Shown piece after piece: positions 3,031-59,577 of a stretch of DNA of 64,000 bases. The position numbers were made by a program, and so were the translations under genes. Position 1 is the stretch's first letter. Every line of letters begins with the position of its first letter. Origin of the DNA: Nemertoderma westbladi. Lineage: Eukaryota > Animalia > Xenacoelomorpha. The notes under the pieces were generated by a model that worked only from the letters and a program-made list of their open reading frames with translations, did no database searches and was not told the DNA's origin. Location of the stretch: the NCBI GenBank assembly GCA_032718475.1, contig JAUCBJ010008553.1, forward strand, positions 29,319 through 93,318, written 5' to 3'.

Positions 3031-3265
3031 TTACAGTGCTTTATTTGGTGGGGGGCACCTGCCCCTGTGGCACTTGAGACCCCTGGCGTACCATTCGATT
3101 TGGTCCAATAATCTCCTAGCGTTGGATTCGTAACGTATCTTCCATTTTCCGTCAACCGGTTCTCCGTCTGTATTCAAGGAGTCCTGGACACTGGGACAGC
3201 CCATTATCTCGGACACAGAGAGACATCCATGGTGGCCTGTGAGCGCTCGCATCTGCATCGCTGCC
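3031..3265 (-). CDS. NAD(P)H-dependent FMN/quinone reductase (flavodoxin-like fold), coding exon 4 (last)
   Basis: Acceptor ttgtatttcag|G. Encodes (R)AAMQMRALTG...LLDQIEWYARGLK...KAL*. Phase 2 matches exon 3. AATAAA on the minus strand at 2976-2981. Confidence 0.9.
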
Positions 3266-4348: not shown

Positions 4349-4552
4349 CTCATTCCGCCAAATATTCCACTGGAATAACAAACAATCCCACTGGGTTTGT
4401 AAGTCCATCCCTCCATTCCGAAATGGTCGACTAAGTTTTTCATAGCGGAAGGAATACAATGGTTGTATTCGCCACAAATAAAAATAAAAGCGTCGCAGGA
4501 CTTTATTTCGTCGTTGATTTTGACCAGCCAAGAAGGTGCTTCCGATATATCC
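4349..4552 (-). CDS. FMN/quinone reductase, coding exon 3
   Basis: Acceptor ctttgtag|, donor AG|gttcgt. Encodes DISEAPSWLVKINDEIKSCDAFIFICGEYNHCIPSAMKNLVDHF...KPSGIVCYSSGIFGGMR, carrying the EYN, KNxxD and GG-R motifs of the FMN_red family. Confidence 0.93.
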
Positions 4553-6634: not shown

Positions 6635-6730
6635 ATCATATCATAGTAATAGTTCGATTATAACGGTACCATAAATAGACCATGAAACATAATATATACG
6701 ATATAGTTCAGAAAAATAAATATTTTTTTC

Positions 6731-9700
6731 GGGGGTGTAACAGGAGTGGATGAGTAAACGGGGGTGTAACAGGAGTGGAGGAGTAAAGGGGGTGTAACAG
6801 GAGTGGATGAGTATACGGGGGTGTAACAGGAGTGGAGGAGTAAACGGGGGTGTAACAGGAGTGGAGGAGTATACGGGGGTGTAACGGGAGTGGATGAGTA
6901 AACGTGAGTGTAACGGGAGTGGATGAGTAAACGGGGGTGTAACAGTAGTGGATGAGTAAACGGGGGTGTAACAGGAGTGGATGAGTAAACGTGGGTGTAA
7001 CAGGAGTGGATGAGTAAAGGGGGGTGTAACAGTAGTGGATGAGTAAACGGGGGTGTAACAGGAGTGGATGAGTAAACGGGGGTGTAACAGGAGTGGATGA
7101 GTATACGGGGGTGTAACAGGAGTGGATGAGTATACGGGGGTGTAACAGGAGTGGATGAGTATACGGGGGTGTAACAGGAGTGGATGAGTAAAGGGGGTGT
7201 AACAGGAGTGGATGAGTAAAGGGGGTGTAACAGGAGTGGATGAGTATACGGGGGTGTAACAGGAGTGGATGAGTATACGGGGGTGTAACAGGAGTGGATG
7301 AGTAAAGGGGGGTGTAACAGGAGTGGATGAGTATACGGGGGTGTAACAGGAGTGGATGAGTATACGGGGGTGTAACAGGAGTGGATGAGTATACGGGGGT
7401 GTAACAGGAGTGGATGAGTAAAGGGGGGTGTAACAGGAGTGGATGAGTATACGGGGGTGTAACAGGAGTGGATGAGTATACGGGGGTGTAACAGGAGTGG
7501 ATGAGTAAAGGGGGTGTAACAGGAGTGGATGAGTAAAGGGGGTGTAACAGGAGTGGATGAGTATACGGGGGTGTAACAGGAGTGGATGAGTAAAGGGGGT
7601 GTAACAGGAGTGGATGAGTAAAGGGGGGTGTAACAGTAGTGGATGAGTAAACGGGGGTGTAACAGGAGTGGATGAGTAAACGGGGGTGTAACAGGAGTGG
7701 ATGAGTATACGGGGGTGTAACAGTAGTGAATGAGTATACGGGGGTGTAACAGGAGTGGATGAGTATACGGGGGTGTAACAGGAGTGGATGAGTATACGGG
7801 GGTGTAACAGGAGTGGAGGAGTAAAGGGGGTGTAACAGGAGTGGATGAGTAAACGGGTGTGTAACAGGAGTGGATGAGTAAACGTGGGTGTAACGGGAGT
7901 GGATGAGTAAAGGGGGTGTAACAGTAGTGGATGAGTAAACGGGGGTGTAACAGGAGTGGATGAGTAAAGGGGGTGTAACAGTAGTGGATGAGTAAACGGG
8001 GGTGTAACAGGAGTGGATGAGTAAACGGGGGTGTAATAGTAGTGGATGAGTAAAGGGGGTGTAATAGTAGTGGATGAGTATACGGGGGTGTAACAGTAGT
8101 GGATGAGTAAAGGGGGTGTAACAGGAGTGGATGAGTAAAGGGGGTGTAACAGGAGTGGATGAGTATACGGGGGTGTAACAGGAGTGGATGAGTAAAGGGG
8201 GTGTAACAGGAGTGGATGAGTAAAGGGGGGTGTAACAGTAGTGGATGAGTAAACGGGGGTGTAACAGGAGTGGATGAGTAAACGGGGGTGTAACAGGAGT
8301 GGATGAGTATACGGGGGTGTAACAGTAGTGGATGAGTATACGGGGGTGTAACAGGAGTGGATGAGTATACGGGGGTGTAACAGGAGTGGATGAGTATACG
8401 GGGGTGTAACAGGAGTGGATGAGTAAAGGGGGTGTAACAGTAGTGGATGAGTAAACGGGGGTGTAACAGGAGTGGATGAGTAAACGGGGGTGTAACAGGA
8501 GTGGATGAGTATACGGGGGTGTAACAGTAGTGGATGAGTATACGGGGGTGTAACAGGAGTGGATGAGTATACGGGGGTGTAACAGGAGTGGATGAGTAAA
8601 GGGGGTGTAACAGTAGTGGATGAGTAAACGGGGGTGTAACAGGAGTGGATGAGTAAAGGGGGTGTAACAGTAGTGGATGAGTATACGGGGGTGTAACAGG
8701 AGTGGATGAGTAAAGGGGGTGTAACAGTAGTGGATGAGTAAAGGGGGTGTAACAGTAGTGGATGAGTATACGGGGGTGTAACAGTAGTGGATGAGTAAAG
8801 GGGGTGTAACAGTAGTGGATGAGTATACGGGGGTGTAACAGGAGTGGATGAGAAAAGGGGGTGTAACAGGAGTGGATGAGTAAACGGGGGTGTAACAGGA
8901 GTGGATGAGTAAAGGGGGTGTAACAGTAGTGGATGAGTAAAGGGGGTGTAACAGTAGTGGATGAGTATACGGGGGTGTAACAGTAGTGGATGAGTAAAGG
9001 GGGTGTAACAGGAGTGGATGAGTATACGGGGGTGTAACAGTAGTGGATGAGTAAAGGGGGTGTAACAGTAGTGGATGAGTATACGGGGGTGTAACAGTAG
9101 TGGATGAGTAAAGGGGGTGTAACAGGAGTGGATGAGTAAAGGGGGTGTAACAGGAGTGGATGAGAAAAGGGGGTGTAACAGGAGTGGATGAGTAAACGGG
9201 GGTGTAACAGGAGTGGATGAGTATACGGGGGTGTAACAGGAGTGGATGAGAAAAGGGGGTGTAACAGGAGTGGATGAGTAAACGGGGGTGTAACAGGAGT
9301 GGATGAGTATACGGGGGTGTAACAGGAGTGGATGAGTAAAGGGGGTGTAACAGGAGTGGATGAGTAAAGGGGGTGTAACAGGAGTGGATGAGTATACGGG
9401 GGTGTAACAGTAGTGGATGAGTATACGGGGGTGTAACAGTAGTGGATGAGTAAAGGGGGTGTAACAGTAGTGGATGAGTATACGGGGGTGTAACAGTAGT
9501 GGATGAGTAAAGGGGGTGTAACAGGAGTGGATGAGAAAAGGGGGTGTAACAGGAGTGGATGAGTAAACGGGGGTGTAACAGGAGTGGATGAGTATACGGG
9601 GGTGTAACAGGAGTGGATGAGAAAAGGGGGTGTAACAGGAGTGGATGAGTAAACGGGGGTGTAACAGGAGTGGATGAGTATACGGGGGTGTAACAGGAGT

Positions 9701-10384
9701 GGATGAGTAAAGGGGGTGTAACAGGAGTGGATGAGTAAAGGGGGTGTAACAGGAGTGGATGAGTATACGGGGGTGTAACAGTAGTGGATGAGTAAACGGG
9801 GGTGTAACAGGAGTGGATGAGTAAAGGGGGTGTAACAGGAGTGGATGAGTATACGGGGGTGTAACAGTAGTGGATGAGTAAACGGGGGTGTAACAGGAGT
9901 GGATGAGTAAAGGGGGTGTAACAGGAGTGGATGAGTATACGGGGGTGTAACAGGAGTGGATGAGTAAAGGGGGTGTAACAGGAGTGGATGAGTAAAGGGG
10001 GTGTAACAGGAGTGGATGAGTATACGGGGGTGTAACAGTAGTGGATGAGTAAACGGGGGTGTAACAGGAGTGGATGAGTAAAGGGGGTGTAACAGGAGTG
10101 GATGAGTATACGGGGGTGTAACAGGAGTGGATGAGTAAAGGGGGTGTAACAGGAGTGGATGAGTATACGGGGGTGTAACAGTAGTGGATGAGTAAACGGG
10201 GGTGTAACAGGAGTGGATGAGTAAAGGGGGTGTAACAGGAGTGGATGAGTATACGGGGGTGTAACAGTAGTGGATGAGTAAACGGGGGTGTAACAGGAGT
10301 GGATGAGAAAAGGGGGTGTAACAGGAGTGGATGAGTAAACGGGGGTGTAACAGGAGTGGATGAGTATACGGGGGTGTAACAGTA
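6731..10384 (+). repeat. 28-29-bp G-rich minisatellite (GGGGGTGTAACAGGAGTGGATGAGTA[TAC/AAC/AA]) in intron 1 of the reductase
   Basis: About 127 tandem copies over 3.65 kb. Confidence 0.97.
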
Positions 10385-13780: not shown

Positions 13781-14178
13781 GGTTCTATTACTTATGGCAG
13801 TAGTTGTAACAATACTTTTATATGAGAGTCCAGGTCCCGGGTTCATTGACTGTGTCAAGTACAATGAACACATCTCCAATCAGACTTTATAGCTATACAA
13901 CATTGGAGGTGTATCGTTGGTCCCCCTAGTTTGACACTTGAACAGAGCCTCCGCCCCCGCTTACAGGCCATTGCTTTCACTGTGAGGACCAGCCAGTGCA
14001 TAATCTTGTGCTTTGGCCGCCTTATGGACTGAATAAACATGGTGTACAGCCCATGACTTTCTTAAGACGCATCTTAAAGGACACTGGCCTTGAAGATGCT
14101 GATGATCTAGCAAATATCATGGGTGTTAGGGAGTTGTGGCGGCGCAATTTTGTCGACAATCCGGCACAGCATTCTTAA
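13781..14178 (+). mobile_element. RTE-like LINE 3' part (continuation of 10700-11170)
   Basis: The rejoined frame reads IKRNLKVLLLMAVVVTILLYES. The C-terminus LVLWPPYG...ILKDTGLEDADDLANIMGVRELWR is typical of RTE ORF ends. Confidence 0.78.
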
Positions 14179-15522: not shown

Positions 15523-15740
15523 TTAAGAATGCTGTGCCGGCTTGTCAACAAAATTGCACCGCCACAACTCCCTATCACCCATGACATTTGCTAGATCATC
15601 CGCATCTTCAAGGCCAGTGTCCTTTAAGATGCGTCCCAAGAAAGTCATTGGCTGTCCACCATGCTTATTCACTCCATGAGGCTGCCAAAGTACAAGATTA
15701 TGCATTGGCTGGTCCTCACGGCGAAAGCAATGTCCTGCAA
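15523..15740 (-). mobile_element. Second RTE-like LINE 3'-end copy, inverted relative to ~13960-14178
   Basis: Near-identical translation HNLVLWQPHG...LKDTGLEDADDLANVMGDRELWR. Confidence 0.8.
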
Positions 15741-15891: not shown

Positions 15892-16473
15892 AATTTTGTT
15901 ACATTATGTCAACTTATCAGCGTTCGGTATGTGAAGAAAGGATTTTATGGATGTTCATTTATACATTTTAATCATGTATTATATCGAATATAAGTGAAAT
16001 TTATTAACAGGTTACACAGTATTAATTAATACATTTATATCTAATTAAAGTTTATTGTTGTTATCTCCTGCATGGATGTGATAAATCGTCCATCTTGAGT
16101 TTCGTCGACTGAAGCAAACTGAGTCATCCGTTCAGTTTTACTGAACACTGTCGCCATTTTCTTTGCTCAATTTCTGTATAAAGTGTCTACTATTGGACGT
16201 TTACAGTACACTTTAAACAATTATTTACATACTGTAGAGTAGACAGACAGTCCTGTGGTCTCGTCACTGCAAACTGGATAATATAGCAGCATATAGTAGC
16301 ATTAACATAAATGTAAAGAATACATTGTGGAAAACGGTAATTTAAGTTGTTTCCATGTTATTAATTACTTTGCAGCATTCCGTCCTATAGGCCGCAACGT
16401 TGCAAAGTAGTACTTTGCAGCGTTACGAGTAATTCATCAGAACGCTGATAAGTTGGCAAAATGTAACAAAATT
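15892..16473. mobile_element. MITE-like element with ~34-bp inverted repeats
   Basis: AATTTTGTTACATTATGTCAACTTATCAGCGTTC (15892-15925) versus its reverse complement at 16440-16473, 2 mismatches. Confidence 0.6.
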
Positions 16474-17155: not shown

Positions 17156-17262
17156 GCACTGAGCGGGCTCAATTGGATTTGTGGCTCGGAGCACTGAGCG
17201 AGCGCAATGCGATTGGTAGCTCGGAGCACTGAGCCAGCTCAATGGGATTGGTGGCTCGGAGA
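17156..17262 (+). repeat. Three copies of a ~35-bp tandem repeat
   Basis: GCACTGAGC..GCTCAA.....TTGGTGGCTCGGA repeated three times. Confidence 0.75.
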
Positions 17263-17604
17263 GCATCAAACACATGCATGGTGGTATTAATATGAAAACA
17301 ATAAAAAATAAATAAAATAGGACATGGGGTCTTATTCCCTCAGATACTACCTAGCATTTATGGCCACTTGGGCCATTGTTAGTACTCAGGCACTAAGGCC
17401 CATTAAAAAACAAAATACCAAATCGATTTTAGTGCTACATATCCCAACCCAACTACCACAGGAAAAACTACACCAAACCATACAGTAACTACAGGTACCG
17501 GTAAGTATTGCACGAAATAGGCTATCTTATAAATTACGAAAAATATATAGGACATTTTGTCCGCCGAAAAGGTAAGTCTAAGTAATAAATTTTATAAAAA
17601 TAAA

Positions 17605-17676
17605 AGGGTTTCGGAGATTTAAACACTGTACCCTGGGATTCGTGGTTCTCCTCATCAGCAGTGTGCCACGAACCCC
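17605..17676 (-). ncRNA. Hammerhead ribozyme, non-circularly permuted (pseudoknotted) topology
   Basis: Minus-strand RNA GGGGUUCGUGG C ACACUG CUGAUGA GGAGA A CCACGAAUCCC AGGG UA CAGUGU UUAAA UCUCC GAAA CCCU. It has the intact CUGAUGA, GAAA and GUA core, stem I of 6 bp, stem II of 5 bp, stem III of 5 bp, and an extra 11-bp helix. Confidence 0.8.
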
Positions 17677-17928
17677 ACCCCTAACCTAACAAAACTGCAC
17701 CACTAAATTAAGACAATGACCAATAAATAAGAAATCCCACCGTACCTCCCCCAGAGTTGAAACCACCCACCCCCAATGTATGTTACCATCAGCCCCAAAT
17801 GCATAAACATGATTCCCCACTGAATGCAACCAACCCCAAATTAGCACCTACCGGTATGTACAGATAAATTATCAGATTTTTAAACAAAATTGCGCAGATG
17901 TCAGAAAATGCCCCTGTAAATATATAAT

Positions 17929-18400
17929 GCATGGTGGTGAACTAGCAATATCCTTTGGGAAACAGAGTGGAATGGTTACTGTGGAAGATCACCCAGGGTG
18001 GTGAACAGTGATTCCTTTAGGAAACAGAGTGGAAGGGTGTACTGTCAGACTGTGGAAGATCACCCATGGTGGTGAACAGGCATTCCTTTAGGACACAGAG
18101 TGGAAGGGTTTACTGTGGAAGATCACCCTTGATGGTGAACAGGCATTCATTTAGGAAACAGAGTGGAATGGTTTACAGTAGATGATCACCCATTGTGGTG
18201 AACAGGCATTCATTTAGGAAACAGAGTTGAAGGGTTTACTGTGGAAAATAAAACATGCATGGAGGTGAACTGGCAATATCCTTTGGGAAACAGAGTGGAA
18301 GGGTTTGCTGTGGAAGTTCACTCATGATGATGAACAGGAATTCATTTAGGAAACAGAGTGGAATGGTTTACAGTAGATGATCACCCATTGTGGTGAACAG
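17929..18400 (+). repeat. ~63-bp tandem repeat, ~7 copies
   Basis: GGTGGTGAACAGGCATTC.TTTAGGAAACAGAGTGGAAGGGTTTACTGTGGAAGATCACCCAT units start at 18068, 18131 and 18194. Confidence 0.88.
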
Positions 18401-21400
18401 TATAGGCAGTTCGCAGCTATTACAGTAGTACAGTATAGGCAGTTCGCAGCTATTACAGTAGTACAGTATAGGCAGTTCGCAGCTATTACAGTAGTACAGT
18501 ATAGGCAGTTCGCAGCTATTACAGTAGTACAGTATAGGCAGTTCGCAGCTATTACAGTAAGTACAGTATAGGCAGTTCGCAGCTATTACAGTAGTACAGT
18601 ATAGGCAGTTCGAAGCTATTACAGTAGTACAGTATAGGCAGTTCGCAGCTATTACAGTAGTACGGTATAGGCAGTTCGCAGCTATTACAGTAGTACAGTA
18701 TAGGCAGTTTGCAGCTATTGCAGTAGTACAGTATAGGCAGTTCGCAGCTATTACAGTAGTACAGTATAGGCAGTTCGAAGCTATTACAGTAGTACAGTAT
18801 AGGCAGTTCGCAGCTATTACAGTAGTACAGTATAGGCAGTTCGCAGCTATTACAGTAAGTACAGTATAGGCAGTTCGCAGCTATTACAGTAGTACAGTAT
18901 AGGCAGTTCGCAGCTATTACAGTAGTACAGTATAGGCAGTTCGCAGCTATTACAGTAGTACAGTATAGGCAGTTCGAAGCTATTACAGTAGTACAGTATA
19001 GGCAGTTCGAAGCTATTACAGTAAGTACAGTATAGGCAGTTCGCAGCTATTGCAGTAGTACAGTATAGGCAGTTCGCAGCTATTAAAGTAGTACAGTATA
19101 GGCAGTTCCCAGCTATTACAGTAGTACAGTATAGGCAGTTCGCAGCTATTACAGTAGTACAGTATAGGCAGTTCGCAGCTATTACAGTAGTACAGTATAG
19201 GCAGTTCGCAGCTATTACAGTAGTACAGTATAGGCAGTTCGCAGCAATTACAGTAGTACAGTATAGGCAGTTCGCAGCTATTACAGTAGTACAGTATAGG
19301 CAGTTCGCAGCTATTACAGTAGTACAGTATAGGCAGTTCGCAGCTATTACAGTAGTACAGTATAGGCAGTTCGCAGCAATTACAGTAGTACAGTATAGGC
19401 AGTTCGCAGCTATTACAGTAGTACAGTATAGGCAGTTCGCAGCTATTACAGTAGTACAGTATAGGCAGTTCGCAGCTATTACAGTAAGTACAGTATAGGC
19501 AGTTCGCAGCTATTACAGTAGTACAGTATAGGCAGTTCGAAGCTATTACAGTAGTACAGTATAGGCAGTTCGCAGCTATTACAGTAGTACAGTATAGGCA
19601 GTTCGCAGCTATTACAGTAGTACAGTATAGGCAGTTCGCAGCTATTACAGTAGTACAATATAGGCAGTTCGCAGCTATTACAGTAGTACGGTATAGGCAG
19701 TTCGAAGCTATTACAGTAGTACAGTATAGGCAGTACGCAGCTATTACAGTAGTACAGTATAGGCAGTTCGCAGCTATTACAGTAGTACAGTATAGGCAGT
19801 TCGCAGCTATTACAGTAGTACAGTATAGGCAGTTCGCAGCTATTACAGTAGTACAGTATAGGCAGTACGCAGCTATTACAGTAGTACAGTATAGGCAGTT
19901 CGCAGCTATTACAGTAGTACAGTATAGGCAGTTCGCAGCTATTACAGTAGTACAGTATAGGCAGTACGCAGCTATTACAGTAGTACAGTATAGGCAGTTC
20001 GCAGCTATTACAGTAGTACAGTATAGGCAGTTCGCAGCTATTACAGTAGTACAGTATAGGCAGTTCGCAGCTATTACAGTAGTACAGTATAGGCAGTACG
20101 CAGCTATTACAGTAGTACAGTATAGGCAGTTCGCAGCTATTACAGTAGTACAGTATAGGCAGTTCGCAGCTATTACAGTAGTACAGTATAGGCAGTTCGC
20201 AGCTATTACAGTAGTACAGTATAGGCAGTACGCAGCTATTACAGTAGTACAGTATAGGCAGTTCGCAGCTATTACAGTAGTACAGTATAGGCAGTTCGCA
20301 GCTATTACAGTAGTACAGTATAGGCAGTACGCAGCTATTACAGTAGTACAGTATAGGCAGTTCGCAGCTATTACAGTAGTACAGTATAGGCAGTTCGCAG
20401 CTATTACAGTAGTACAGTATAGGCAGTTCGCAGCTATTACAGTAGTACAGTATAGGCAGTTCGCAGATATTACAGTAGTACAGTATAGGCAGTTCGAAGC
20501 TATTACAGTAAGTACAGTATAGGCAGTTCGAAGCTATTACAGTAGTACAGTATAGGCAGTTCGCAGCTATTACAGTAGTACAGTATAGGCAGTTCGCAGC
20601 TATTACAGTAGTACAGTATAGGCAGTTCGCAGCTATTACAGTAGTACAGTATAGGCAGTTCGCAGCTATTACAGTAGTACAGTATAGGCAGTTCGCAGCT
20701 ATTACAGTAGTACAGTATAGGCAGTTCGCAGCTATTACAGTAGTACAGTATAGGCAGTTCGCAGCTATTACAGTAGTACAGTATAGGCAGTTCGCAGATA
20801 TTACAGTAGTACAGTATAGGCAGTTCGAAGCTATTACAGTAAGTACAGTATAGGCAGTTCGAAGCTATTACAGTAGTACAGTATAGGCAGTTCGCAGCTA
20901 TTACAGTAGTACAGTATAGGCAGTTCGCAGCTATTACAGTAGTACAGTATAGGCAGTTCGCAGCTATTACAGTAGTACAGTATAGGCAGTTCGCAGCTAT
21001 TACAGTAGTACAGTATAGGCAGTTCGCAGCTATTACAGTAGTACAATATAGGCAGTTCGCAGCTATTACAGTAGTACGGTATAGGCAGTTCGAAGCTATT
21101 ACAGTAGTACAGTATAGGCAGTTCGAAGCTATTACAGTAGTACAGTATAGGCAGTTCGCAGCTATTACAGTAGTACAGTATAGGCAGTTCGAAGCTATTA
21201 CAGTAAGTACAGTATAGGCAGTTCGCAGCTATTGCAGTAGTACAGTATAGGCAGTTCGCAGCTATTAAAGTAGTACAGTATAGGCAGTTCCCAGCTATTA
21301 CAGTAGTACAGTATAGGCAGTTCGAAGCTATTACAGTAGTACAGTATAGGCAGTTCGCAGCTATTACAGTAGTACAGTATAGGCAGTTCGAAGCTATTAC

Positions 21401-24400
21401 AGTAAGTACAGTATAGGCAGTTCGCAGCTATTACAGTAAGTACAGTATAGGCAGTTCGCAGCTATTACAGTAGTACAGTATAGGCAGTTCGCAGCTATTA
21501 CAGTAGTACAGTATAGGCAGTTCGCAGCTATTACAGTAGTACAGTATAGGCAGTTCGCAGCAATTACAGTAGTACAGTATAGGCAGTTCGCAGCTATTAC
21601 AGTAGTACAGTATAGGCAGTTCGCAGCAATTACAGTAGTACAGTATAGGCAGTTCGCAGCTATTGCAGTAGTACAGTATAGGCAGTTCGCAGCAATTACA
21701 GTAGTACAGTATAGGCAGTTCGCAGCTATTGCAGTAGTACAGTATAGGCAGTTCGCAGCTATTGCAGTAGTACAGTATAGGCAGTTCGAAGCTATTACAG
21801 TAGTACAGTATAGGCAGTTCGCAGCACTTACAGTAGTACAGTATAGGCAGTTCGCAGCTATTGCAGTAGTACAGTATAGGCAGTTCGCAGCTATTACAGT
21901 AGTACAGTATAGGCAGTTCGCAGCTATTACAGTAAGTACAGTATAGGCAGTTCGCAGCTATTACAGTAGTACAGTATAGGCAGTTCGCAGCTATTACAGT
22001 AGTACAGTATAGGCAGATCCCAGATATTACAGTAGTACAGTATAGGCAGTTCGAAGCTATTACAGTAGTACAGTATAGGCAGTTCGCAGCTATTACAGTA
22101 GTACAGTATAGGCAGTTCGCAGCTATTACAGTAGTACAGTATAGGCAGTTCGCAGCTATTACAGTAGTACAGTATAGGCAGTTCGCAGCAATTACAGTAG
22201 TACAGTATAGGCAGTTCGCAGCTATTGCAGTAGTACAGTATAGGCAGTTCGCAGCTATTACAGTAGTACAGTATAGGCAGATCCCAGATATTACAGTAGT
22301 ACAGTATAGGCAGTTCGCAGCTATTACAGTAGTACAGTATAGGCAGTTCGAAGCTATTACAGTAGTACAGTATAGGCAGTTCGCAGCTATTACAGTAGTA
22401 CAGTATAGGCAGTTCGCAGCTATTACAGTAGTACAGTATATGCAGTTCGAAGCTATTACAGTAGTACAGTATAGGCAGTTCGCAGCTATTGCAGTAGTAC
22501 AGTATAGGCAGTTCGCAGCTATTACAGTATTACAGTATAGGCAGATCCCAGATATTACAGTAGTACAGTATAGGCAGTTCGCAGCTATTACAGTAGTACA
22601 GTATAGGCAGTTCGAAGCTATTACAGTAAAACAGTATAGGCAGTTCGCAGCTATTACAGTAGTACAGTATATGCAGTTCGAAGCTATTACAGTAAGTACA
22701 GTATAGGCAGTTCGCAGCTATTGCAGTAGTACAGTATAGGCAGTTCGCAGCTATTAAAGTAGTACGGTATAGGCAGTTCGCAGCTATTACAGTAGTACAG
22801 TATAGGCAGTTCGAAGCTATTACAGTAGTACAGTATAGGCAGTTCGAAGCTATTACAGTAGTACAGTATAGGCAGTTCGCAGCTATTGCAGTAGTACAGT
22901 ATAGGCAGTTCGCAGCTATTACAGTAGTACAGTATAGGCAGTTCGCAGCTATTACAGTAGTACAGTATAGGCAGTTCGAAGCTATTACAGTAGTACAGTA
23001 TAGGCAGTTCGCAGCTATTACAGTAGTACAGTATAGGCAGTTCGCAGCTATTACAGTAGTACAGTATAGGCAGTTCGCAGCTATTACAGTAGTACAGTAT
23101 AGGCAGTTCGCAGCTATTACAGTAGTACAGTATAGGCAGTTCGCAGCTATTACAGTAGTACAGTATAGGCAGTTCGCAGCTATTACAGTAGTACAGTTTA
23201 GGCAGTTCGAAGCTATTACAGTAATACAGTATAGGCAGTTCGCAGCTATTACAGTAGTACAGTATAGGCAGTTCGCAGCTATTACAGTAGTACAGTATAG
23301 GCAGTTCGCAGCTATTGCAGTAGTACAGTATAGGCAGATCCCAGATATTACAGTAGTACAGTATAGGCAGTTCGCAGCTATTACAGTAGTACAGTATAGG
23401 CAGTTCGAAGCTATTACAGTAGTACAGTATAGGCAGTTCGCAGCTATTACAGTAGTACAGTATAGGCAGTTCGAAGCTATTACATTAGTACAGTATAGGC
23501 AGTTCGCAGCTATTACAGTAAAACAGTATAGGCAGTTCGAAGCTATTACAGTAGTACAGTATAGGCAGTTCGCAGCTATTACAGTAGTACAGTATAGGCA
23601 GTTCGAAGCTATTACAGTAGTACAGTATAGGCAGTTCGCAGCTATTACAGTAGTACAGTATAGGCAGATCCCAGATATTACAGTAGTACAGTATAGGTAG
23701 TTCGCAGCTATTACAGTAGTACAGTATAGGCAGTTCGAAGCTATTACATTAGTACAGTATAGGCAGTTCGCAGCTATTACAGTAAAACAGTATAGGCAGT
23801 TCGAAGCTATTACAGTAGTACAGTATAGGCAGTTCGCAGCAATTACAGTAGTACAGTATAGGCAGTTCGCAGCTATTACAGTAGTACAGTATAGGCAGTT
23901 CGAAGCTATTACAGTAGTACAGTATAGGCAGATCCCAGATATTACAGTAGTACAGTATAGGTAGTTCGCAGCTATTACAGTAGTACAGTATAGGCAGTTC
24001 GAAGCTATTACATTAGTACAGTATAGGCAGTTCGCAGCTATTACAGTAGTACAGTATAGGCAGTTCGCAGCTATTACAGTAGTACAGTATAGGCAGTTCG
24101 AAGCTATTACATTAATACAGTATAGGCAGTTCGCAGCTATTACAGTAGTACAGTATAGGCAGTTCGCAGCTATTACAGTAGTACAGTATAGGCAGTTCGA
24201 AGCTATTACATTAGTACAGTATAGGCAGTTCGCAGCTATTACAGTAGTACAGTATAGGCAGTTCGCAGCTATTACAGTAGTACAGTATAGGCAGTTCGAA
24301 GCTATTACAGTAGTACAGTATAGGCAGTTCGCAGCAATTACAGTAGTACAGTATAGGCAGTTCGCAGCTATTACAGTAGTACAGTATAGGCAGTTCGAAG

Positions 24401-25511
24401 CTATTACATTAGTACAGTATAGGCAGTTCGCAGCTATTACAGTAGTACAGTATAGGCAGTTCGCAGCTATTACAGTAGTACAGTATAGGCAGTTCGAAGC
24501 TATTACATTAGTACAGTATAGGCAGTTCGCAGCTATTACAGTAGTACAGTATAGGCAGTTCGCAGCTATTACAGCAGTACAGTATAGGCAGTTCGCAGCT
24601 ATTACAGTAGTACAGTATAGGCAGTTCGAAGCTATTACAGTAAAACAGTATAGGCAGTGCGAAGCTATTACAGTAGTACAGTATAGGCAGTTCGAAGCTA
24701 TTACAGTAGTACAGTATAGGCAGTTCGCAGCTATTACAGTAGTACAGTATAGGCAGTTCGCAGCTATTACAGTAGTACAGTATAGGCAGTTCGAAGCTAT
24801 TACAGTAGTACAGTATAGGCAGTTCGCAGCTATTACAGTAGTACAGTATAGGCAGATCCCAGCTATTACAGTAGTACAGTATAGGCAGTTCGCAGATATT
24901 GCAGTAGTACAGTATAGGCAGTTCGCAGCTATTACAGTAGTACAGTATAGGCAGTTCGAAGCTATTACAGTAGTACAGTATAGGCAGTTCGAAGCTATTA
25001 CATTAGTACAGTATAGGCAGATCGCAGCAATTACAGTAGTACAGTATAGGCAGTTCGCAGCTATTACAGTAGTACAGTATAGGCAGTTCGCAGCTATTAC
25101 AGTAGTACAGTATAGGCAGTTCGCAGCTATTACAGTAGTACAGTATAGGCAGTTCGCAGCTATTACAGTAGTACAGTATAGGCAGTTCGAAGCTATTACA
25201 GTAGTACAGTATAGGCAGTTCGCAGCTATTACAGTAGTACAGTATAGGCAGTTCGCAGCTATTACAGTAGTACAGTATAGGCAGTTCGAAGCTATTACAG
25301 TAGTACAGTATAGGCAGTTCGCAGCTATTACAGTAGTACAGTATAGGCAGTTCGCAGCTATTACAGTAGTACAGTATAGGCAGTTCGCAGCTATTACAGT
25401 AGTACAGTATAGGCAGTTCGCAGCTATTACAGTAGTACAGTATAGGCAGTTCGAAGCTATTACAGTAGTACAGTATAGGCAGTTCGAAGCTATTACATTA
25501 GTACAGTATAG
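18397..25511 (+). repeat. 33-bp satellite (ACAGTATAGGCAGTTCGCAGCTATTACAGTAGT), ~215 copies
   Basis: 7.1-kb homogeneous tandem array with recurrent variants (TTCGAAG, GATCCCAGAT, +A). Confidence 0.98.
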
Positions 25512-26270: not shown

Positions 26271-27024
26271 GTTAGTTGCTACTTTATTGACTCAAGGGTT
26301 ATAGGTGTACTGTATGTACTACGTGCGGGTAAGGTAGTTATTACGTCCTAATCACCCCAAACCTAGTCATACTGTTTATAATAATAATCTGGTAGACCTC
26401 TGAAGCTGTGCTTGTCAATCTTATATATCTTTTCATGATTGTGTGGATGTCACATCAATTTTTCTGTATTACAATTATTTTCCTGACGGTACTGAAATAT
26501 AAAGGGTCTATATGAAAATTGACGCAATTAGAGTTTATGTTAACACAGTCAGACATCACATTACCCACACAAATCAACCAGACATATTTATTATAATATG
26601 ATGGATAATTTGCCACTTAAATATTTCCTGCATATGTGTAGGAGACCTATAGGTAGTTCTACTGTAAAATTTATGATATAACGGTCCAATGGGAGGCATT
26701 CAAAGACTCAGTCGTTCTGTAGTTTTTATGAATTATGCGACATGGCTTTTATATATCGCTTGAATTAATGTGCAGTCATTCGTGGCATGTGACACTGTGT
26801 AGTAGTGGATAACTATACGTTAATATATTTTGAAAACATTTCTCTATATTTTTTATATATTAGTTAATCTTAATTTCTCATTTGCACCCACTCCCCTCAC
26901 ATTAATAATGACTTTTAAAAATTTAGTAGGAAACCTTTGCCCAAAAGTAACGTTTGGATGCAATATGCAACTGCTAATTTTAAATGAAATGAAAGGGATA
27001 GCTCATGTTACGGTTTCATTCCAA

Positions 27025-28445
27025 CTCAACACCTAAACCCATAGAACCTGCAACCCAGCACGCACCTACAACCCAGCACGCACCTACAACCCGGCACCTA
27101 CAACTAATAGCACCTACAACCCAGCACGCACCTACAACCCAGCACATACAACCCAACACTTACAACACAGAACCTACAACCCGGCACCTACAACTAATAG
27201 CACCTACAACCCAGCACCTACAACTCAAAACCTACAACCCATAGAACCTACAACCCAGCACGTACAACCCAACACTTACAACATAGCACCTACAACCCAA
27301 CACTTACAACACAGCACCTACAACCCGGCACCTACAACTAATAGCACCTACAACCCAGCACCTACAACCCAACACCTACAACGTATCACCTACAACTCAA
27401 AACCTACAACCCATAGCACCTACAACCCAGCACGTACAACCGAACACTTACAACACAGCACCTACAACCCAACACTTACAACACAGCACCTATAACCCGG
27501 CACCTACAACTAATAACACCTACAACCCAGCACCTACAACCCAACACCTACAACGTATCACCTACAACTCAAAACCTACAACCCATAGCACCTACAACCC
27601 AGCACGTACAACCCAACACTTACAACATAGCACCTACAACCCAACACTTACAACACAGCACCTACAACCCGGCACCTACAACCCGGCACCTACAGCTAAT
27701 AGCACCTACAACCCAGCACCTACAACGTATCACCTACAACTCAAAACCTACAACCTATAGCACCTACAACCCAGCACGTACAACCCAACACTTACAACAC
27801 AGCACCTACAACCCAACACTTTAAATGCAACACCTACAACCCAACACATACAACCCAGCACCTGCAACCAATAGCACTTGCAATCCAGCACCTAAATCCC
27901 ACCACCTACAACGCAATACCTACAACTCAAAACCTACAACCCATAGAACCTACAACCTAGCACCTACAACCCATAGTACTTACAACCAAGCACCTACAAC
28001 TCGGCACCTACAACCAATACCACCTACAACTCAGCACCTACAACCCAACACCTACAACTGAACAACTACAAATCAAAGCCTACAACCCAACACCTACAAC
28101 CAATAGCACCTACAACCAAACACCTACAAACCATAGCACCTGCAGCCCAGCACCTACAGCCCAACACACACAACCCAGCACCTACAATACAGCACCTACA
28201 AGCCAGCACATACAACACAACACCTACAACTCAAAACCTACAACCCAGCACCTACAACCATCTACCTACGACCCATAGCACTTACAACCCAACACCTACA
28301 ACCTAACGCCTACAACCAAGCACCTACAAACCATAGCACCTACAACCCAGTACACACAACCCAGCACCTACAATCCAGCACCTACAACCCAGCACCGATA
28401 ACCAAGCACCTACAACCCATAGCACCTACAACCTAGCACATCCAC
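27025..28445 (+). repeat. ~14-bp C/A-rich minisatellite (CACCTACAACCCAG)
   Basis: About 100 degenerate copies; a few inverted copies at 28610-28660. Confidence 0.93.
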
Positions 28446-31205: not shown

Positions 31206-34200
31206 GACGTTTGTGTTGGTGTAGACTGCTACACTGCGAGACGTTAGTGTTGGTGTAGACTGGTACCGGTACACAGCAAGACTTTAGTGTTGGTGTAGAT
31301 TGGTACACAGGGACTTATTAGTGTTGGTGTAGATTGTTACACAGGGAGTTGTTAGTGTTGGTGTAGACTGGTACACTGCGAGACGTTAGTGTTGGTGTAG
31401 ACTGGTACACTGCGAGACGTTAGTGTTGGTGTAGACTGGTACATAGCGAGACATCAATGTTGGTGAAGACTGGTAAACTGCGAGACGTTAGTGTTGGTGT
31501 AGACTGGTACACTGCGAGACGTTTGTGTTGGTGTAGACTGGTACACAGCGAGACATCAATGTTGGTGTAGACTGGTAAACTGCGAGACGTTAGTGTTTGT
31601 GTAGACTGGTACAGAGCGAGACATCAGTGTTGGTGTAGACTGGTACACTGAGAGACGTTAGTGTTGGTGTAGACTGGTACACAGCGAGACGTTAGTGTTG
31701 GTGTAGATTGGTACACAGGGAGTTGTTAGTGTTGATGTAGACTAGTACACTGAGAGACGTTATTGTTGGTGTAGATTGTTACACAGGGAGTTGTCAGTGT
31801 TGGTGTAGACTGGTACACTGCGAGACGTTTGTGTTGGTGTAGACTGGTACACTGCGAGACGTTAGTGTTGGTGTAGACTGGTACACTGCGAGACGTTAGT
31901 GTTGGTGTAGACTGGTACAGAGCGAGACATCAGTGTTGGTGTAGACTGGTAAACTGCGAGACGTTAGTGTTGGTGTAGATTGGTACACAGGGAGTTATTA
32001 GTGTTGGTGTAGATTGGTACACAGGGAGTTGTTAGTGTTGGTGTAGATTGGTGCACAGGGAGTTGTTAGTATTGATGTAGACTAGTACACTGAGAGACGT
32101 TAGTGTTGGTGTAGATTGTTACACAGGGAGTTGTTAGTGTTGGTGTAGACTGGTACACTGCGAGACGTTTGCGTTGGTGTAGACTGGTACAATGCGAGAC
32201 GTTAGTGTTGGTGTAGACTGGTACACAGCGAGACATCAATGTTGGTGTAGACTGGTAAACTGCGAGACGTTAGTGTTGGTGTAGACTGGTACGGAGCGAG
32301 ACATCAGTGTTGGTGTAGACTGGTAAACTGCGAGACGTTAGTGTTGGTGTGGACTGGTACACAGCGAGACGTTAGTGTTGGTGTAAATTGGTACACAGGG
32401 AGTTATTAGTGTTGGTGTAGATTGGTACACAGGGAGTTGTTAGTGTTGGTGTAGATTGGTGCACATGGAGTTGTTAGTATTGATGTAGACTAGTACACTG
32501 AGAGACGTTAGTGTTGGTGTAGACTGGTACACTGAGAGACGTTTGTGTTGGTGTAGACTGGTACACTGAGAGACGTTAGTGTTTGTGTAGACTGGTACAC
32601 AGACAGACGTTAGTGTTGGTGTAGACTGGTACACAGATAGACGTTAGTGTTGGTGTAGACTGGTACACCGAGAGACGTTAGTGTTGGTGTAGACTGGTAG
32701 ACAGTGAGAGGTTAGTGTTGGTATAGATTGGTACACAGGGAGTTATTAGTGTTGGTGAAGATTGGTGCATAGGGAGTTGTTAGTGATGGTGTAGACTGGT
32801 GCACAGAGAGACGTTAGTATTGGTGTAGACTGGTACACAGCGAGACGTTAGTATTGGTGTAGATTGGTACTCAGGGAGTTATTAGTGTTGGTGTAGACTG
32901 GTACACAGACAGACGTTAGTGTTGGTGTATACTGGTACACTGAGAGACGTTAGTGTTGGTGTAGACCGGTACACTGAGAGACGTTAGTGTTGGTGTAGAA
33001 TGGTACACTGGGAGACGTTAGTGCTGGTGTAGACTGGTACACTGGGAGGCGTTAGTGTTGGTGTAGACTGGTACACAGCGAGACGTTAGTATTGGTGTAG
33101 ATTGGTACTCAGGGAGTTATTAGTGTTGGTGTAGACTGGTACACAGACAGACGTTAGTGTTGGTGTATACTGGTACACTGAGAGACGTTAGTGTTGGTGT
33201 AGACCGGTACACTGAGAGACGTTAGTGTTGGTGTAGAATGGTACACTGGGAGACGTTAGTGCTGGTGTAGACTGGTACACTGCGAGGCGATAGTGTTGGT
33301 GTAGACTGGTACACTGCGAGGCGTTAGTGTTGGTGTAGACTAGTACACTGCGAGGCGTTAGTGTTGGTGTAGACTAGTACACTGCGAGACGTTAGTGTTG
33401 GTGTAGACTGGTACACTGGGAGGCGTTAGTGTTGGTGTAGACTGGTACACAGCGAGACGTTAGTATTGGTGTAGATTGGTACTCAGGGAGTTATTAGTGT
33501 TGGTGTAGACTGGTACACAGACAGACGTTAGTGTTGGTGTATACTGGTACACTGAGAGACGTTAGTGTTGGTGTAGACCGGTACACTGAGAGACGTTAGT
33601 GTTGGTGTAGAATGGTACACTGGGAGACGTTAGTGCTGGTGTAGACTGGTACACTGGGAGACGTTAGTGCTGGTGTAGACTGGTACACTGCGAGGCGATA
33701 GTGTTGGTGTAGACTAGTACACTGCGAGGCGTTAGTGTTGGTGTAGACTGGTACATAGCGAGACATTAGTATTGGTGTAGATTGGTACTCAGGGAGTTAT
33801 TAGTGTTGGTGTAGACTGGTACACAGACAGACGTTAGTGTTGGTGTAGACTGGTACACTGCAAGGCGATAGTGTTGGTGTAGACTGGTACACTGCGAGGC
33901 GTTAGTGTTGGTGTAGACTGGTACACTGGGAGACGTTAGTACTGGTGTAGAGTGGTACACTGCGAGACGTTAGTGTTGGTGTAGACTGGTACACTGCGAG
34001 GCGTTAGTGTTGGTGTAGACTGGTACACTGCGAGGCGTTAGTGTTGGTGTAGACTGGTACACTGGGAGACGTTAGTACTGGTGTAGAGTGGTACACTGCG
34101 AGACGTTAGTGTTGGTGTAGACTGGTACACTGCGAGGCGATAGTGTTGGTGTAGACTGGTACACTGCGAGGCGTTAGTGTTGGTGTAGACTGGTACACTG

Positions 34201-37200
34201 GGAGACGTTAGTACTGGTGTAGAGTGGTACACTGCGAGACGTTAGTGTTGGTGTAGACTGGTACACTGCGAGGCGTTAGTGTTGGTGTAGACTGGTACAC
34301 TGCGAGGCGATAGTGTTGGTGTAGACTGGTACACTGCGAGGCGTTAGTGTTGGTGTAGACTGGTACACTGAGAGACGTTAGTGTTTGTGTAGACTGGTAC
34401 ACTGCGAGGCGATAGTGTTGGTGTAGACTGGTACACTGAGAGACGTTAGTGTTTGTGTAGACTGGTACACTGCGAGGCGTTAGTGTTGGTGTAGACTGGT
34501 ACACTGCGAGGCGTTAGTGTTGGTGTAGACTGGTACACTACGAGGCGATAGTGTTGGTGTAGACTGGTACACTGAGAGACGTTAGTGTTTGTGTAGACTG
34601 CTACACTGCGAGGCGTTAGTGTTGGTGTAGACTGGTACACTGCGAGGCGATAGTGTTGGTGTAGACTGGTACACTGAGAGTCGTTAGTGTTGGTGTAGAC
34701 TGGTACACTGCGAGGCGTTAATGTTGGTGTAGACTGGTACACTGGGAGACGTTAGTGTTGGTGTAGACTGGTACACTGAGAATCGTTAGTGTTGGTGTAG
34801 ACTGGTACACTGCGAGGCGTTAGTGTTGGTGTAGACTGATACACTGCGAGGCGTTAATGTTGGTGTAGACTGGTACACTGCGAGGCGTTAATGTTGGTGT
34901 AGACTGGTACACTGGGAGAAGTTAGTGTTGGTGTAGACTGGTACACTGAGAGACGTTAGTGTTGGTGTAGACTGGTACACTGCGAGGCGTTAATGTTGGT
35001 GTAGACTGGTACACTGCGAGGCGTTAATGTTGGTGTAGACTGGTACACTGGGAGACGTTAGTGTTGGTGTAGACTGGTACACTGAGAGACGTTAGTGTTT
35101 GTGTAGACTGGTACACTGCGAGGCGTTAGTGTTGGTGTAGACTGGTACACTGCGAGGCGTTAGTGTTGGTGTAGACTGGTACACTGCGAGACGTTAGTGT
35201 TGGTGTAGACTGGTACACTGCGAGGCGTTAATGTTGGTGTAGACTGGTACACTGGGAGACGTTAGTGTTGGTGTAGACTGGTACACTGCGAGGCGTTAAT
35301 GTTGGTGTAGACTGGTACACTGGGAGACGATAGTGTTGGTGTAGACTGGTACACTGAGAATTGTTAGTGTTGATGTAGACTGGTACACTGTGAGTCGTAA
35401 GTGTTGGTGTAGACTGGTTCACTGAGAGACGTTATTGTTGGTGTAGACTGGTACACTGGGAGACTATAGTGTTGATGTAGACTGGTACACTGAGAATCGT
35501 TAGTGTTGATGTAGACTGGTACACTGTGAGTCGTTAGTGTTGGTGTAGACTGGTTCACTGAGAGACGATAGTGTTGGTGTAGACTGGTACACTGCGAGGC
35601 GATAGTGTTGGTGTAGACTGGTACACTGAGAGACGTTAGTGTTTGTGTAGACTGGTACACTGCGAGGCGTTAGCGTTGGTGTAGACTGGTACACTGCGAG
35701 GCGTTAGTGTTGGTGTAGACTGGAACACTGCGAGGCGATAGTGTTGGTGTAGACTGGTACACTGAGAGACGTTAGTGTTTGTGTAGACTGGTACACTGCG
35801 AGGCGTTAGTGTTGGTGTAGACTGGTACACTGCAAGGCGTTAGTGTTGGTGTAGACTAGTACACTGCGAGGCGTTAGTGTTGGTGTAGACTGGTACACTG
35901 GGAGACGATAGTGTTGGTGTAGACTGGTACACTGAGAGACGTTAGTGTTTGTGTAGACTGGTACACTGCGAGGCGATAGTGTTGGTGTAGACTGGTACAC
36001 TGAGAGACGTTAGTGTTTGTGTAGACTGGTACACTGCGAGACGTTAGTGTTTGTGTAGACTGGTACACTGCGAGGCGTTAGTGTTGGTGTAGACTGGTAC
36101 ACTGCGAGGCGTTAGTGTTGGTGTAGACTGGTACACTGCGAGGCGATAGTGTTGGTGTAGACTGGTACACTGAGAGACGTTAGTGTTTGTGTAGACTGGT
36201 ACACTGCGAGGCGTTAGTGTTGGTGTAGACTGGTACACTGCGAGACGTTAGTGTTTGTGTAGACTGGTACACTGCGAGGCGTTAGTGTTTGTGTAGACTG
36301 GTACACTGCGAGACGTTAGTGTTTGTGTAGACTGGTACACTGCGAGGCGATAGTGTTGGTGTAGACTGGTACACTGAGAGACGTTAGTGTTGGTGTAGAC
36401 TGGTACACTGCGAGGCGTTAGTGTTGGTGTAGACTGGTACACTGAGAGACGTTAGTGTTTGTGTAGACTGGTACACTGCGAGGCGATAGTGTTGGTGTAG
36501 ACTGGTACACTGAGAGACGTTAGTGTTTGTGTAGATTGGTACACTGCGAGGCGTTAGTGTTGGTGTAGACTGGTACACTGCGAGGCGTTAGTGTTGGTGT
36601 AGACTGGTACACTGCGAGGCGATAGTGTTGGTGTAGACTGGTACACTGAGAGACGTTAGTGTTGGTGTAGACTGGTACACTGCGAGGCGTTAATGTTGGT
36701 GTAGACTGGTACACTGGGAGACGTTAGTGTTGGTGTAGACTGGTACACTGCGAGGCGTTAATGTTGGTGTAGACTGGTACACTGGGAGACGATAGTGTTG
36801 GTGTAGACTGGTACACTGAGAATTGTTAGTGTTGATGTAGACTGGTACACTGTGAGTCGTAAGTGTTGGTGTAGACTGGTTCACTGAGAGACGTTTTTGT
36901 TGGTGTAGACTGGTACACTGGGAGACTATAGTGTTGATGTAGACTGGTACACTGAGAATCGTTAGTGGTGATGTAGACTGGTACACTGTGAGTCGTTAGT
37001 GTTGGTGTAGACTGGTTCACTGAGAGACGTTAGTGTTGGTGTAGACTGGTACACTAGGAGACGATAGTGTTGGTGTAGACTGGTACACTGAGAGACGTTA
37101 GTGTTTGTGTAGACTGGTACACTGCGAGGCGTTAGTGTTGGTGTAGACTGGTACACTGCGAGGCGTTAGTGTTGGTGTAGACTGGTACACTGCGAGGCGA

Positions 37201-40200
37201 TAGTGTTGGTGTAGACTGGTACACTGAGAGACGTTAGTGTTTGTGTAGACTGGTACACTGCGAGGCGTTAGTGTTGGTGTAGACTGGTACACTGCAAGGC
37301 GTTAGTGTTGGTGTAGACTAGTACACTGCGAGGCGTTAGTGTTGGTGTAGACTGGTACACTGGGAGACGATAGTGTTGGTGTAGACTGGTACACTCAGAA
37401 TCGTTAGTGTTGATGTAGACTGGTACCGGTACACTGCGAGGCGTTAGTGTTGGTGTAGACTGGTACACTGCGAGGCGATAGTGTTGGTGTAGACTGGTAC
37501 ACTGAGAGACGTTAGTGTTTGTGTAGACTGGTACACTGCGAGGCGTTAGTGTTGGTGTAGACTGGTACACTGCAAGGCGTTAGTGTTGGTGTAGACTAGT
37601 ACACTGCGAGGCGTTAGTGTTGGTGTAGACTGGTACACTGGGAGACGATAGTGTTGGTGTAGACTGGTACACTGAGAATCGTTAGTGTTGGTGTAGAGTG
37701 GTACACTGCGAGGCGTTAGTGTTGGTGTAGACTGGTACACTGTGAGGCGTTAGTGTTGGTGTAGACTGGTACACTGAGAGACGTTAGTGTTTGTGTAGAC
37801 TGGTACACTGCGAGGCGTTAGTGTTTGTGTAGACTGGTACACTGCGAGACGTTAGTGTTTGTGTAGACTGGTACACTGCGAGGCGTTAGTGTTGGTGTAG
37901 ACTGGTACACTGCGAGGCGTTAGTGTTGGTGTAGACTGGTACACTGCGAGGCGATAGTGTTGGTGTAGACTGGTACACTGAGAGACGTTAGTGTTTGTGT
38001 AGACTGGTACACTGCGAGACGTTAGTGTTTGTGTAGACTGGTACACTGCGAGGCGTTAGTGTTGGTGTAGACTGGTACACTGCGAGGCGATAGTGTTGGT
38101 GTAGACTGGTACACTGAGAGACGTTAGTGTTTGTGTAGACTGGTTCACTGAGAGACGTTAGTGTTTGTGTAGACTGGTACACTGCGAGGCGTTAGTGTTG
38201 GTGTAGACTGGTACACTGCGAGGCGTTAGTGTTGGTGTAGACTGGCACACTGAGAATTGTTAGTGTTGATGTAGACTGGTACACTGCGAGGCGATAGTGT
38301 TGGTGTAGACTGGTACACTGAGAGACGTTAGTGTTTGTGTAGACTGGTACACTGCGAGGCGTTAGTGTTGGTGTAGACTGGTACACTGCGAGACGTTAGT
38401 GTTTGTGTAGACTGGTACACTGCGAGGCGTTAGTGTTTGTGTAGACTGGTACACTGCGAGACGTTAGTGTTTGTGTAGACTGGTACACTGCGAGGCGATA
38501 GTGTTGGTGTAGACTGGTACACTGAGAGACGTTAGTGTTGGTGTAGACTGGTACAATGCGAGGCGTTAGTGTTGGTGTAGACTGGTACACTGAGAGACGT
38601 TAGTGTTTGTGTAGACTGGTACACTGCGAGGCGATAGTGTTGGTGTAGACTGGTACACTGAGAGACGTTAGTGTTTGTGTAGACTGGTACACTGCGAGGC
38701 GTTAGTGTTGGTGTAGACTGGTACACTGCGAGGCGTTAGTGTTGGTGTAGACTGGTACACTGCGAGGCGATAGTGTTGGTGTAGACTGGTACACTGAGAG
38801 ACGTTAGTGTTGGTGTAGACTGGTACACTGCGAGGCGTTAATGTTGGTGTAGACTGGTACACTGGGAGACGTTAGTGTTGGTGTAGACTGGTACACTGCG
38901 AGGCGTTAATGTTGGTGTAGACTGGTACACTGGGAGACGATAGTGTTGGTGTAGACTGGTACACTGAGAATTGTTAGTGTTGATGTAGACTGGTACACTG
39001 TGAGTCGTAAGTGTTGGTGTAGACTGATTCACTGAGAGACGTTATTGTTGGTGTAGACTGGTACACTGGGAGACTATAGTGTTGATGTAGACTGGTACAC
39101 TGAGAATCGTTAGTGTTGATGTAGACTGGTACACTGTGAGTCGTTAGTGTTGGTGTAGACTGGTTCACTGAGAGACGTTAGTGTTGGTGTAGGCTGGTAC
39201 ACTGGGAGACGATAGTGTTGGTGTAGACTGGTACACTGAGAGACGTTAGTGTTTGTGTAGACTGGTACACTGCGAGGCGTTAGTGTTGGTGTAGACTGGT
39301 ACACTGCGAGGCGTTAGTGTTGGTGTAGACTGGTACACTGCGAGGCGATAGTGTTGGTGTAGACTGGTACACTGAGAGACGTTAGTGTTTGTGTAGACTG
39401 GTACACTGCGAGGCGTTAGTGTTGGTGTAGACTGGTACACTGCAAGGCGTTAGTGTTGGTGTAGACTAGTACACTGCGAGGCGTTAGTGTTGGTGTAGAC
39501 TGGTACACTGGGAGACGATAGTGTTGGTGTAGACTGGTACACTGAGAATCGTTAGTGTTGATGTAGACTGGTACCGGTACACTGCGAGGCGTTAGTGTTG
39601 GTGTAGACTGGTACACTGCGAGACGTTAGTGTTGGTGTAGACTGGTACACTGCAAGGCGTTAGTGTTGGTGTAGACTAGTACACTGCGAGGCGTTAGTGT
39701 TGGTGTAGACTGGTACACTGGGAGACGATAGTGTTGGTGTAGACTGGTACACTGCAAGGCGTTAGTGTTGGTGTAGACTAGTACACTGCGAGGCGTTAGT
39801 GTTGGTGTAGACTGGTACACTGGGAGACGATAGTGTTGGTGTAGACTGGTACACTGAGAATCGTTAGTGTTGATGTAGACTGGTACCGGTACACTGCGAG
39901 GCGTTAGTGTTGGTGTAGACTGGTACACTGAGAGACGTTAGTGTTTGTGTAGACTGGTACACTGCGAGGCGTTAGTGTTGGTGTAGACTGGTACACTGCG
40001 AGACGTTAGTGTTGGTGTAGACTGGTACACTGGGAGACGATAGTGTTGGTGTAGACTGGTACACTGCAAGGCGGTAGTGTTGGTGTAGACTAGTACACTG
40101 CGAGGCGTTAGTGTTGGTGTAGACTGGTACACTGGGAGACGATAGTGTTGGTGTAGACTGGTACACTGCAAGGCGTTAGTGTTGGTGTAGACTAGTACAC

Positions 40201-46048: not shown

Positions 46049-46049
46049 T

Positions 46050-59490: not shown

Positions 59491-59577
59491 GACAAATAGT
59501 ATACTTTTTATTGACGGACAGAATAGGTAACACCTATGTAAAAATTATGTAACACCACCATTCCAATAATTAGTAAC

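Follow-up and report, generated by a model that had tools for sequence, protein, structure and literature searches.

We consider it likely that the 72-nt motif described here is a hammerhead of type CSG, lying in the 3' end of a probably 5'-truncated Penelope-like retroelement that would belong to the Naiad clade. The motif was found in DNA of Nemertoderma westbladi (assembly GCA_032718475.1, contig JAUCBJ010008553.1, positions 29,319-93,318 of the forward strand); this whole stretch of 64,000 nt is called the window below. The hammerhead was split into blocks C, S and G by Eckert et al. 2023 (PMC10085705), and in the passages of that paper drawn on here type CSG comprises five sequences, two of them unique (CSG-1 and CSG-2), from soil metagenome DNA with no known host organism. 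The topology is thus already published, and it is the kind of host, a repeat in an animal genome, that appears from the sequence to be new. An earlier note on this DNA had suggested a new family or host; the host can be retained as new, but not the family, since the topology is that of the published type. The literature that we searched, which covers few subscription journals, yielded no report of CSG hammerheads in a eukaryotic genome or mobile element and no paper linking them to Naiads, and within it the terms 'type-CSG' and 'type-SGC' were found in one paper only (PMC10085705).

The coordinates of the motif and of the repeat that carries it are collected in Table 1. The blocks follow each other in the order C, S, G from 5' to 3', none of them interrupted, and the core is complete, with CUGAUGA, GAAA and the triplet GUA (GUU in copies of the family); its two halves are separated by 39 nt. 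In a folding check of the window motif, stems I, II and III have 6, 5 and 5 bp, Watson-Crick throughout, and the extra helix has 11 bp including one G-U, with a duplex energy of -18.7 kcal/mol. Every stem, core and helix position given in the earlier note was found again on the minus strand, and the non-circularly permuted, pseudoknotted order that it had claimed was confirmed as a C-S-G strand order in a doubly pseudoknotted design. Its 11-bp strut, described as running from the tip of stem II to the tip of stem III, exists as a helix but corresponds more exactly to the stem I-II interaction helix of the published type: a single-nucleotide link on either side fastens it to the 5' strands of stems I and II, and at its distal end it continues directly into stem III.

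Two further observations concern the immediate sequence of the motif. The 3' strand of the extra helix (17645-17635) is similar to positions 17616-17605 of block G (CCACGAAUCCC versus CUCCGAAACCC), which could be the relic of a duplicated block G or could be due to chance; this likeness was not seen in the other CSG motifs that we read. Additionally, a telomere-like TTAGG TTAGGG is located immediately upstream of the ribozyme, at 17677-17690 on the minus strand.

Table 1. Positions in the window of the predicted ribozyme, its parts and the surrounding repeat.
Feature	Position	Strand	Basis or remark
5'-truncated high-copy repeat, 641 bp	17286..17926	-	putative 3' end (pLTR) of a Penelope-like element
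U-rich 3' end, 35 nt, 69% T, no poly(A)	17286..17320	-	composition
12-bp direct repeat, left copy	17274..17285	.	likely target-site duplication
12-bp direct repeat, right copy	17927..17938	.	edge of 63-bp tandem array
Predicted type-CSG hammerhead ribozyme, whole motif, 72 nt	17605..17676	-	sequence, descriptor, folding, published CSG alignment
Extra (stem I-II interaction) helix, 5' strand	17666..17676	-	11 bp with 17645-17635, pair probability 1.0
1-nt link C, extra helix 5' strand to block C	17665	-	
Block C	17647..17664	-	stem I 5' strand 17664-17659, CUGAUGA 17658-17652, stem II 5' strand 17651-17647
1-nt link A, block C to extra helix 3' strand	17646	-	
Extra helix, 3' strand	17635..17645	-	abuts stem III, spacer 0
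Block S	17623..17634	-	stem III 5' strand 17634-17630, H17 17629, stem I 3' strand 17628-17623
Predicted cut	17629/17628	-	by analogy with CSG-1 and CSG-2
5-nt linker UUAAA, stem I to stem II	17618..17622	-	same as CSG-2 linker
Block G	17605..17617	-	stem II 3' strand 17617-17613, GAAA 17612-17609, stem III 3' strand 17609-17605

We file the motif as type CSG because it has all the defining features that sequence alone can reveal. In the published structure line of the type, a 5' helix is followed by stem I with 6 bp and the core, then by stem II and the partner strand of the helix, and lastly by stem III with 5 bp and a linker of 5 nt (PMC10085705). With CSG-1 and CSG-2 the window motif shares the C-S-G order, the interaction helix around block C, the intact core, the 6-bp stem I, the 5-bp stem III and a 5-nt linker UUAA(U/A). 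It differs from them in the sequence of all its stems, in its helix (11 bp with 1-nt links versus 8 bp flush), in the spacer before stem III (none versus 2 nt), in the cut triplet (GUA in the window and GUU in the family versus GUC) and in its host (an animal genome repeat versus soil metagenome DNA). Eckert et al. confirmed the four-stem design by compensatory mutants in the related SGC-3, and they proposed for both SGC and CSG that helix and linker hold stems I and II together. They could not reconcile the direct join of the helix to stem III with the crystal structure, and they regarded the evidence for biological relevance as weaker for CSG than for SGC (PMC10085705).

The motif has the sense orientation and lies 319 nt short of the 3' end in a 641-bp repeat of which the window holds a solitary copy and not an array of tandem monomers. 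The ends of the repeat were set by read data, namely contigs from four runs of one organism, representing at most three samples (X1-X4), in which coverage was deep over approximately 17320-17928 and 17250-17319 was skipped as repeat. A 12-bp direct repeat sits exactly at these ends, a length reached in 2 of 1500 random flank pairs. Over the ribozyme, individual contigs reach depths of 5800 (X2) and 4638 (X3), and most longer contigs that reach the flanks have depths of about 14-45; contig depth, which is not copy number, suggests hundreds of near-identical copies. The same coarse measure declines from the 17320 end toward 17920, as expected of 5'-truncated copies made from the minus strand. 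Other copies run past 17928 with sequence that is absent from the window (30 letters beyond the end were seen). Elsewhere there are inverted junctions: we counted two opposite-strand joints, three loose ends map to the minus strand in the 3' part of the element, and the last 11 nt of the U-rich end reappear at an inverted junction in another copy. LINE machinery also yields inverted junctions and direct repeats. We read 17286-17926, on its sequence, as a 5'-truncated retroposed copy that carries the putative ribozyme in sense.

No coding sequence was found in the 641-bp element. Naiads are marked by an N-terminal GIY-YIG, the CxC motif and a reverse transcriptase with DKA, and no sequence of a reverse transcriptase or endonuclease is linked to the window element. 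A plus-strand frame of 36 aa at 17822-17929, with a CPC motif faintly like the CxC of Naiads, was rejected; it is antisense to the ribozyme and has no Pfam match and no Atlas match above 0.80. Two splice-donor-like GGTAAGT sequences, half of the four on the plus strand of the window, are also located antisense inside the element, at 17500 and 17571.

The element adjoins the edge of a 63-bp array, and a 35-bp unit is present three times at 17156-17261, just past its 3' flank. Strand-skewed satellites occupy 6730-10382 (29-bp units), 17930-18400 (63), 18397-25511 (33), 27022-28439 (14) and 31206-46032 (34; 435 copies). A MITE-like sequence of about 580 bp at 15892-16473 has 34-bp inverted repeats (94% alike) and an internal palindrome at 16366-16427. 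Debris of mobile elements at 13996-14178, 15523-15705, 45997-46497, 47058-47501 and 57687-58471 contains, by Pfam, three pieces of endonuclease and one integrase zinc-binding piece, and in addition two similar frames, without a Pfam match, that resemble LINE C-termini. Exons resembling an NADPH-dependent FMN reductase (PF03358, E 8e-16) were observed on the minus strand at 4349-4552, with AG/GT borders, and at about 3031-3140. An open frame of 393 codons on the plus strand (59542-60723) belongs to no Pfam family, and a comparison with proteins of about its length gave no homologue. The intron-bounded exon, the LINE and LTR-element fragments and the long satellites give the window the look of animal DNA.

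We compared the element with published Naiads. According to Craig et al. 2021 (PMC8557442), Naiads are 5'-truncated and frequently sit beside an inverted copy. In the portions of that paper used here they are singled out as the Penelope-like clade that lacks canonical hammerheads, and this absence is taken as an argument that hammerheads could be passengers an element can do without. Eight Naiads are marked there as 'half core', with core halves 35-50 nt apart, and 'core' or 'half core' is marked in only four of the eight nematode consensi. We read the passages of File S5 by eye; of the 54 Naiad consensi, the eight nematode ones listed were covered systematically. A complete CSG hammerhead, in sense and near the U-rich 3' end, is recognizable in each of the eight. 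Adjacent headers give the names of the consensi Parc, Nbra-1, -2, -3, Hcon and Hpol, and Ppac and Asuum are assigned from their order in the file. By the same reading by eye, the helix in these motifs has 9-16 bp, stem I 5-6, stem II 4-5, stem III 6-12 and the linker 2-5 nt; the triplet is GUC in seven and GUU in the one from Heligmosomoides, and the Asuum motif has one additional U after the core. The stems are different in each, except for a near-identical pair from Pristionchus. Across the window motif, CSG-1, CSG-2 and the eight Naiads, compared by eye, stem sequences differ but pairing is kept.

The Pristionchus motifs have the spacing of the window motif: an 11-bp helix, 1 nt, a 6-bp stem I, a 5-bp stem II, 1 nt, no spacer before stem III and a 5-nt linker. 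The gap between the core halves in the window also falls within the range of the 'half core' Naiads. The window element resembles Naiads in its 5' truncation and in the inverted junctions of other copies, the latter not being specific to Naiads; Craig et al. list both traits for Naiads and Penelope-like elements. Naiads also have partial tandem copies (pLTR) and a tail of 30-40 bp. The U-rich end of 35 nt would agree with such a tail in length, although 17250-17319 was skipped as repeat in the read data, and the copy in the window is solitary. From the form of the ribozyme together with the insertion anatomy, we infer that the element is probably a Naiad. If the motifs cut, the apparent absence of hammerheads in Naiads would be an artefact of the search descriptors.

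An unlikely alternative is that the hammerhead is a real CSG ribozyme and the repeat not a Naiad, being instead a non-autonomous retrozyme- or SINE-like sequence or a member of another Penelope-like clade that acquired the ribozyme. Animal retrozymes are reported to be non-autonomous derivatives of Penelope-like elements (10.64898/2026.07.22.740005), and the 641 bp are non-coding. Moreover, short probes (four of 12-13 nt taken from the element, one of 14 nt taken from the ribozyme) matched none of the published Naiad, Chlamys and Hydra consensi, although line breaks in the consensi can hide matches. However, other copies extend upstream of 17928, and in nematode Naiads several hundred non-coding bases likewise precede the ribozyme (File S5). 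The window element has no poly(A) tail and shows neither of the marks of non-LTR retrozymes, tandem monomers and a type I hammerhead in each; in the sources drawn on, the hammerheads of retrozymes and of the other clades are of type I.

We regard it as highly probable, on the analysis as a whole, that the motif is an active CSG ribozyme, and the variation among copies bears on its cut site. Position 17629 on the ribozyme strand is U in 34,317 of 34,348 contig depth in X1 and in all depth of X2-X4; since nearly all depth reads U, the cut triplet of the family is taken to be GUU. The GUA triplet claimed previously therefore holds for the copy in the window and not for the family, and it is either private to this copy or an error. 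GUU is an active NUH triplet, the fastest being GUC and GUA (PMC3138052). The sole other variant listed within the motif, G12 to A, reaches up to about 2% of depth; the listed ribozyme variants (H17 and G12) are uninformative on covariation within the host, and diverged copies that span the motif carry 6-13 differences. Among the loose ends listed there is no pile-up of copy ends at the cut site, and therefore no footprint of cutting in the genome; copies that start at the cut site, which several contigs with ends at 17624-17628 had suggested, were dropped as a candidate for this lack of a pile-up. In the Penelope-like element of Anolis, insertion uses mainly uncut RNA, and the hammerhead site is not where RNA-seq reads end (PMC11167929). 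On this precedent, a missing footprint is expected.

It is improbable, in our estimate, that the CSG design is barely active or inactive, with the extra helix and stem III trapping the RNA so that the pseudoknots rarely form. These two helices are all that is retained in the nested fold. The nested minimum-energy fold of 17595-17690 is unremarkable (z -1.67), although the program used cannot form pseudoknots; the arms of the element are structurally ordinary (z 0.86 and 0.15). Low activity would also agree with the low published CSG rates, with inserted copies that retain an uncut ribozyme and with the lack of a pile-up; a GUU triplet outside the two fastest (PMC3138052) speaks against the main reading. 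In contrast, CSG-1 and CSG-2 share this layout, and cleavage of both RNAs was observed where predicted, at rates of 0.004 and 0.026 per min, for CSG-2 nearly to completion in 2 h (PMC10085705). Furthermore, the stems of the window motif are perfect, and the absent footprint is what the insertion of uncut RNA in Anolis leads one to expect (PMC11167929).

A further reading builds on the fallback of the earlier note, a degenerate type I fold using GAAU (17642-17639); it would be of the kind with a short stem III, here CCC-A-GGG, and block G would be incidental. We hold it to be very improbable. Stem II would have less than 2 bp, A15.1 is absent (the position is U), GAAU is paired in the extra helix with probability 1.0, and ten perfect pairs as well as GAAA would be left unaccounted for. 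These outweigh the nested position of stem I, the similarity of the 3' strand of the helix to block G and the listing in File S2 (PMC8557442) of type I hammerheads from Penelope-like elements whose loop III is a single nucleotide. We also scanned for the nested hammerhead orders of types I and III, and the best options have a 3-bp stem III with its partner 85-136 nt distant.

In order to estimate how often such an arrangement arises by chance, we scanned both strands of the window with a CSG descriptor, for which the motif at 17605-17676 is the single match, and both strands of 1500 dinucleotide shuffles of its 33,786 non-satellite bases (101 Mb). The shuffles contain three matches if every stem must reach 4 bp; none is left when 5 bp are required of every stem, and none has an extra helix of 8 bp or more. 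The Rfam models gave no match to the motif at gathering score, an outcome that the earlier note had thought probable for standard hammerhead models, and the lone match nearby (E=7) is unrelated. A strict CSG pattern had no match in viral contigs and six in metagenome contigs, none of which pairs; this blank is uninformative because the pattern does not recover the published CSG-1 and CSG-2 contigs. A family-specific pattern matched three times, in prokaryote genomes, and a loose pattern at least 120 times in viral contigs. A relaxed descriptor applied to the 129 pattern-matched loci listed found no comparable CSG fold; two weak matches among them were rejected, each having a 3-bp stem and an insertion in the core. 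A chance arrangement in AT-rich repeat DNA, for which the lack of an Rfam match could speak, has a negligible probability given no comparable match in the shuffles or among these 129 loci and a spacing and linker common to the published and Naiad motifs.

Returning to an active CSG ribozyme in a putative Naiad, we infer fold, cleavage, element class and role together in the following scheme. The 11-bp helix would form first, and block C would then sit in the 20-nt loop that it closes. Block S would next pair into this loop as stem I, and block G would then pair into it as stem II and close stem III. The outcome would be an ordinary hammerhead core formed as two pseudoknots, in which stems I and II are kept together by the extra helix and the 5-nt linker. 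Cleavage would occur after GUU or GUA, between 17629 and 17628, leaving a 2',3'-cyclic phosphate and a 5'-OH. The ribozyme may serve to trim tandem or read-through transcripts of the element at the pLTR; a role in transcript processing has been hypothesised for the type I hammerheads of other Penelope-like elements (PMC8557442).

The motif can finally be set beside other hammerheads of reversed order. By eye, a second hammerhead of this kind was observed in five Naiad passages (three from Acropora, one at the file start and one in part 12); it opens between CUGAUGA and stem II, with an additional helix plus a hairpin as the bridge. This split-core form and SGC (HRIMA-1) have the same reversed cyclic block order as CSG and differ in the opening point, which in SGC is at block S and in the split-core form between CUGAUGA and stem II, while in the window motif block C is intact. 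From strand order, the three appear to be circular permutations of one another, and tandem pLTRs might offer a route between them by shifting the opening point. We would give even chances to a broader proposal. In it, CSG would be the hammerhead of one Naiad branch, present here in hundreds of copies and in every nematode Naiad consensus, the soil CSG-1 and CSG-2 would be animal Naiad DNA, and CSG, SGC and the split-core form would be a single reversed-order lineage interconverted by tandem pLTRs. If the Naiad-branch reading is true, it would settle why Naiads seemed to be free of hammerheads, and non-circular RNA permutation would gain a eukaryotic host and an evolutionary route. A sequence-distinct member in a high-copy animal repeat, together with the eight Naiad motifs, would supply host, context and variation for type CSG, a type based so far on two similar sequences.

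The type I hammerheads of Penelope-like pLTRs and of animal retrozymes have the catalytic core and the kind of location in common with the window motif (PMC4209133, 10.64898/2026.07.22.740005); the latter source, a 2026 preprint, describes a search with type I models only. Type I hammerheads are nested three-way junctions with the order C-G-S and a core free of pseudoknots, whereas the window motif has the order C-S-G and is predicted to be pseudoknotted.
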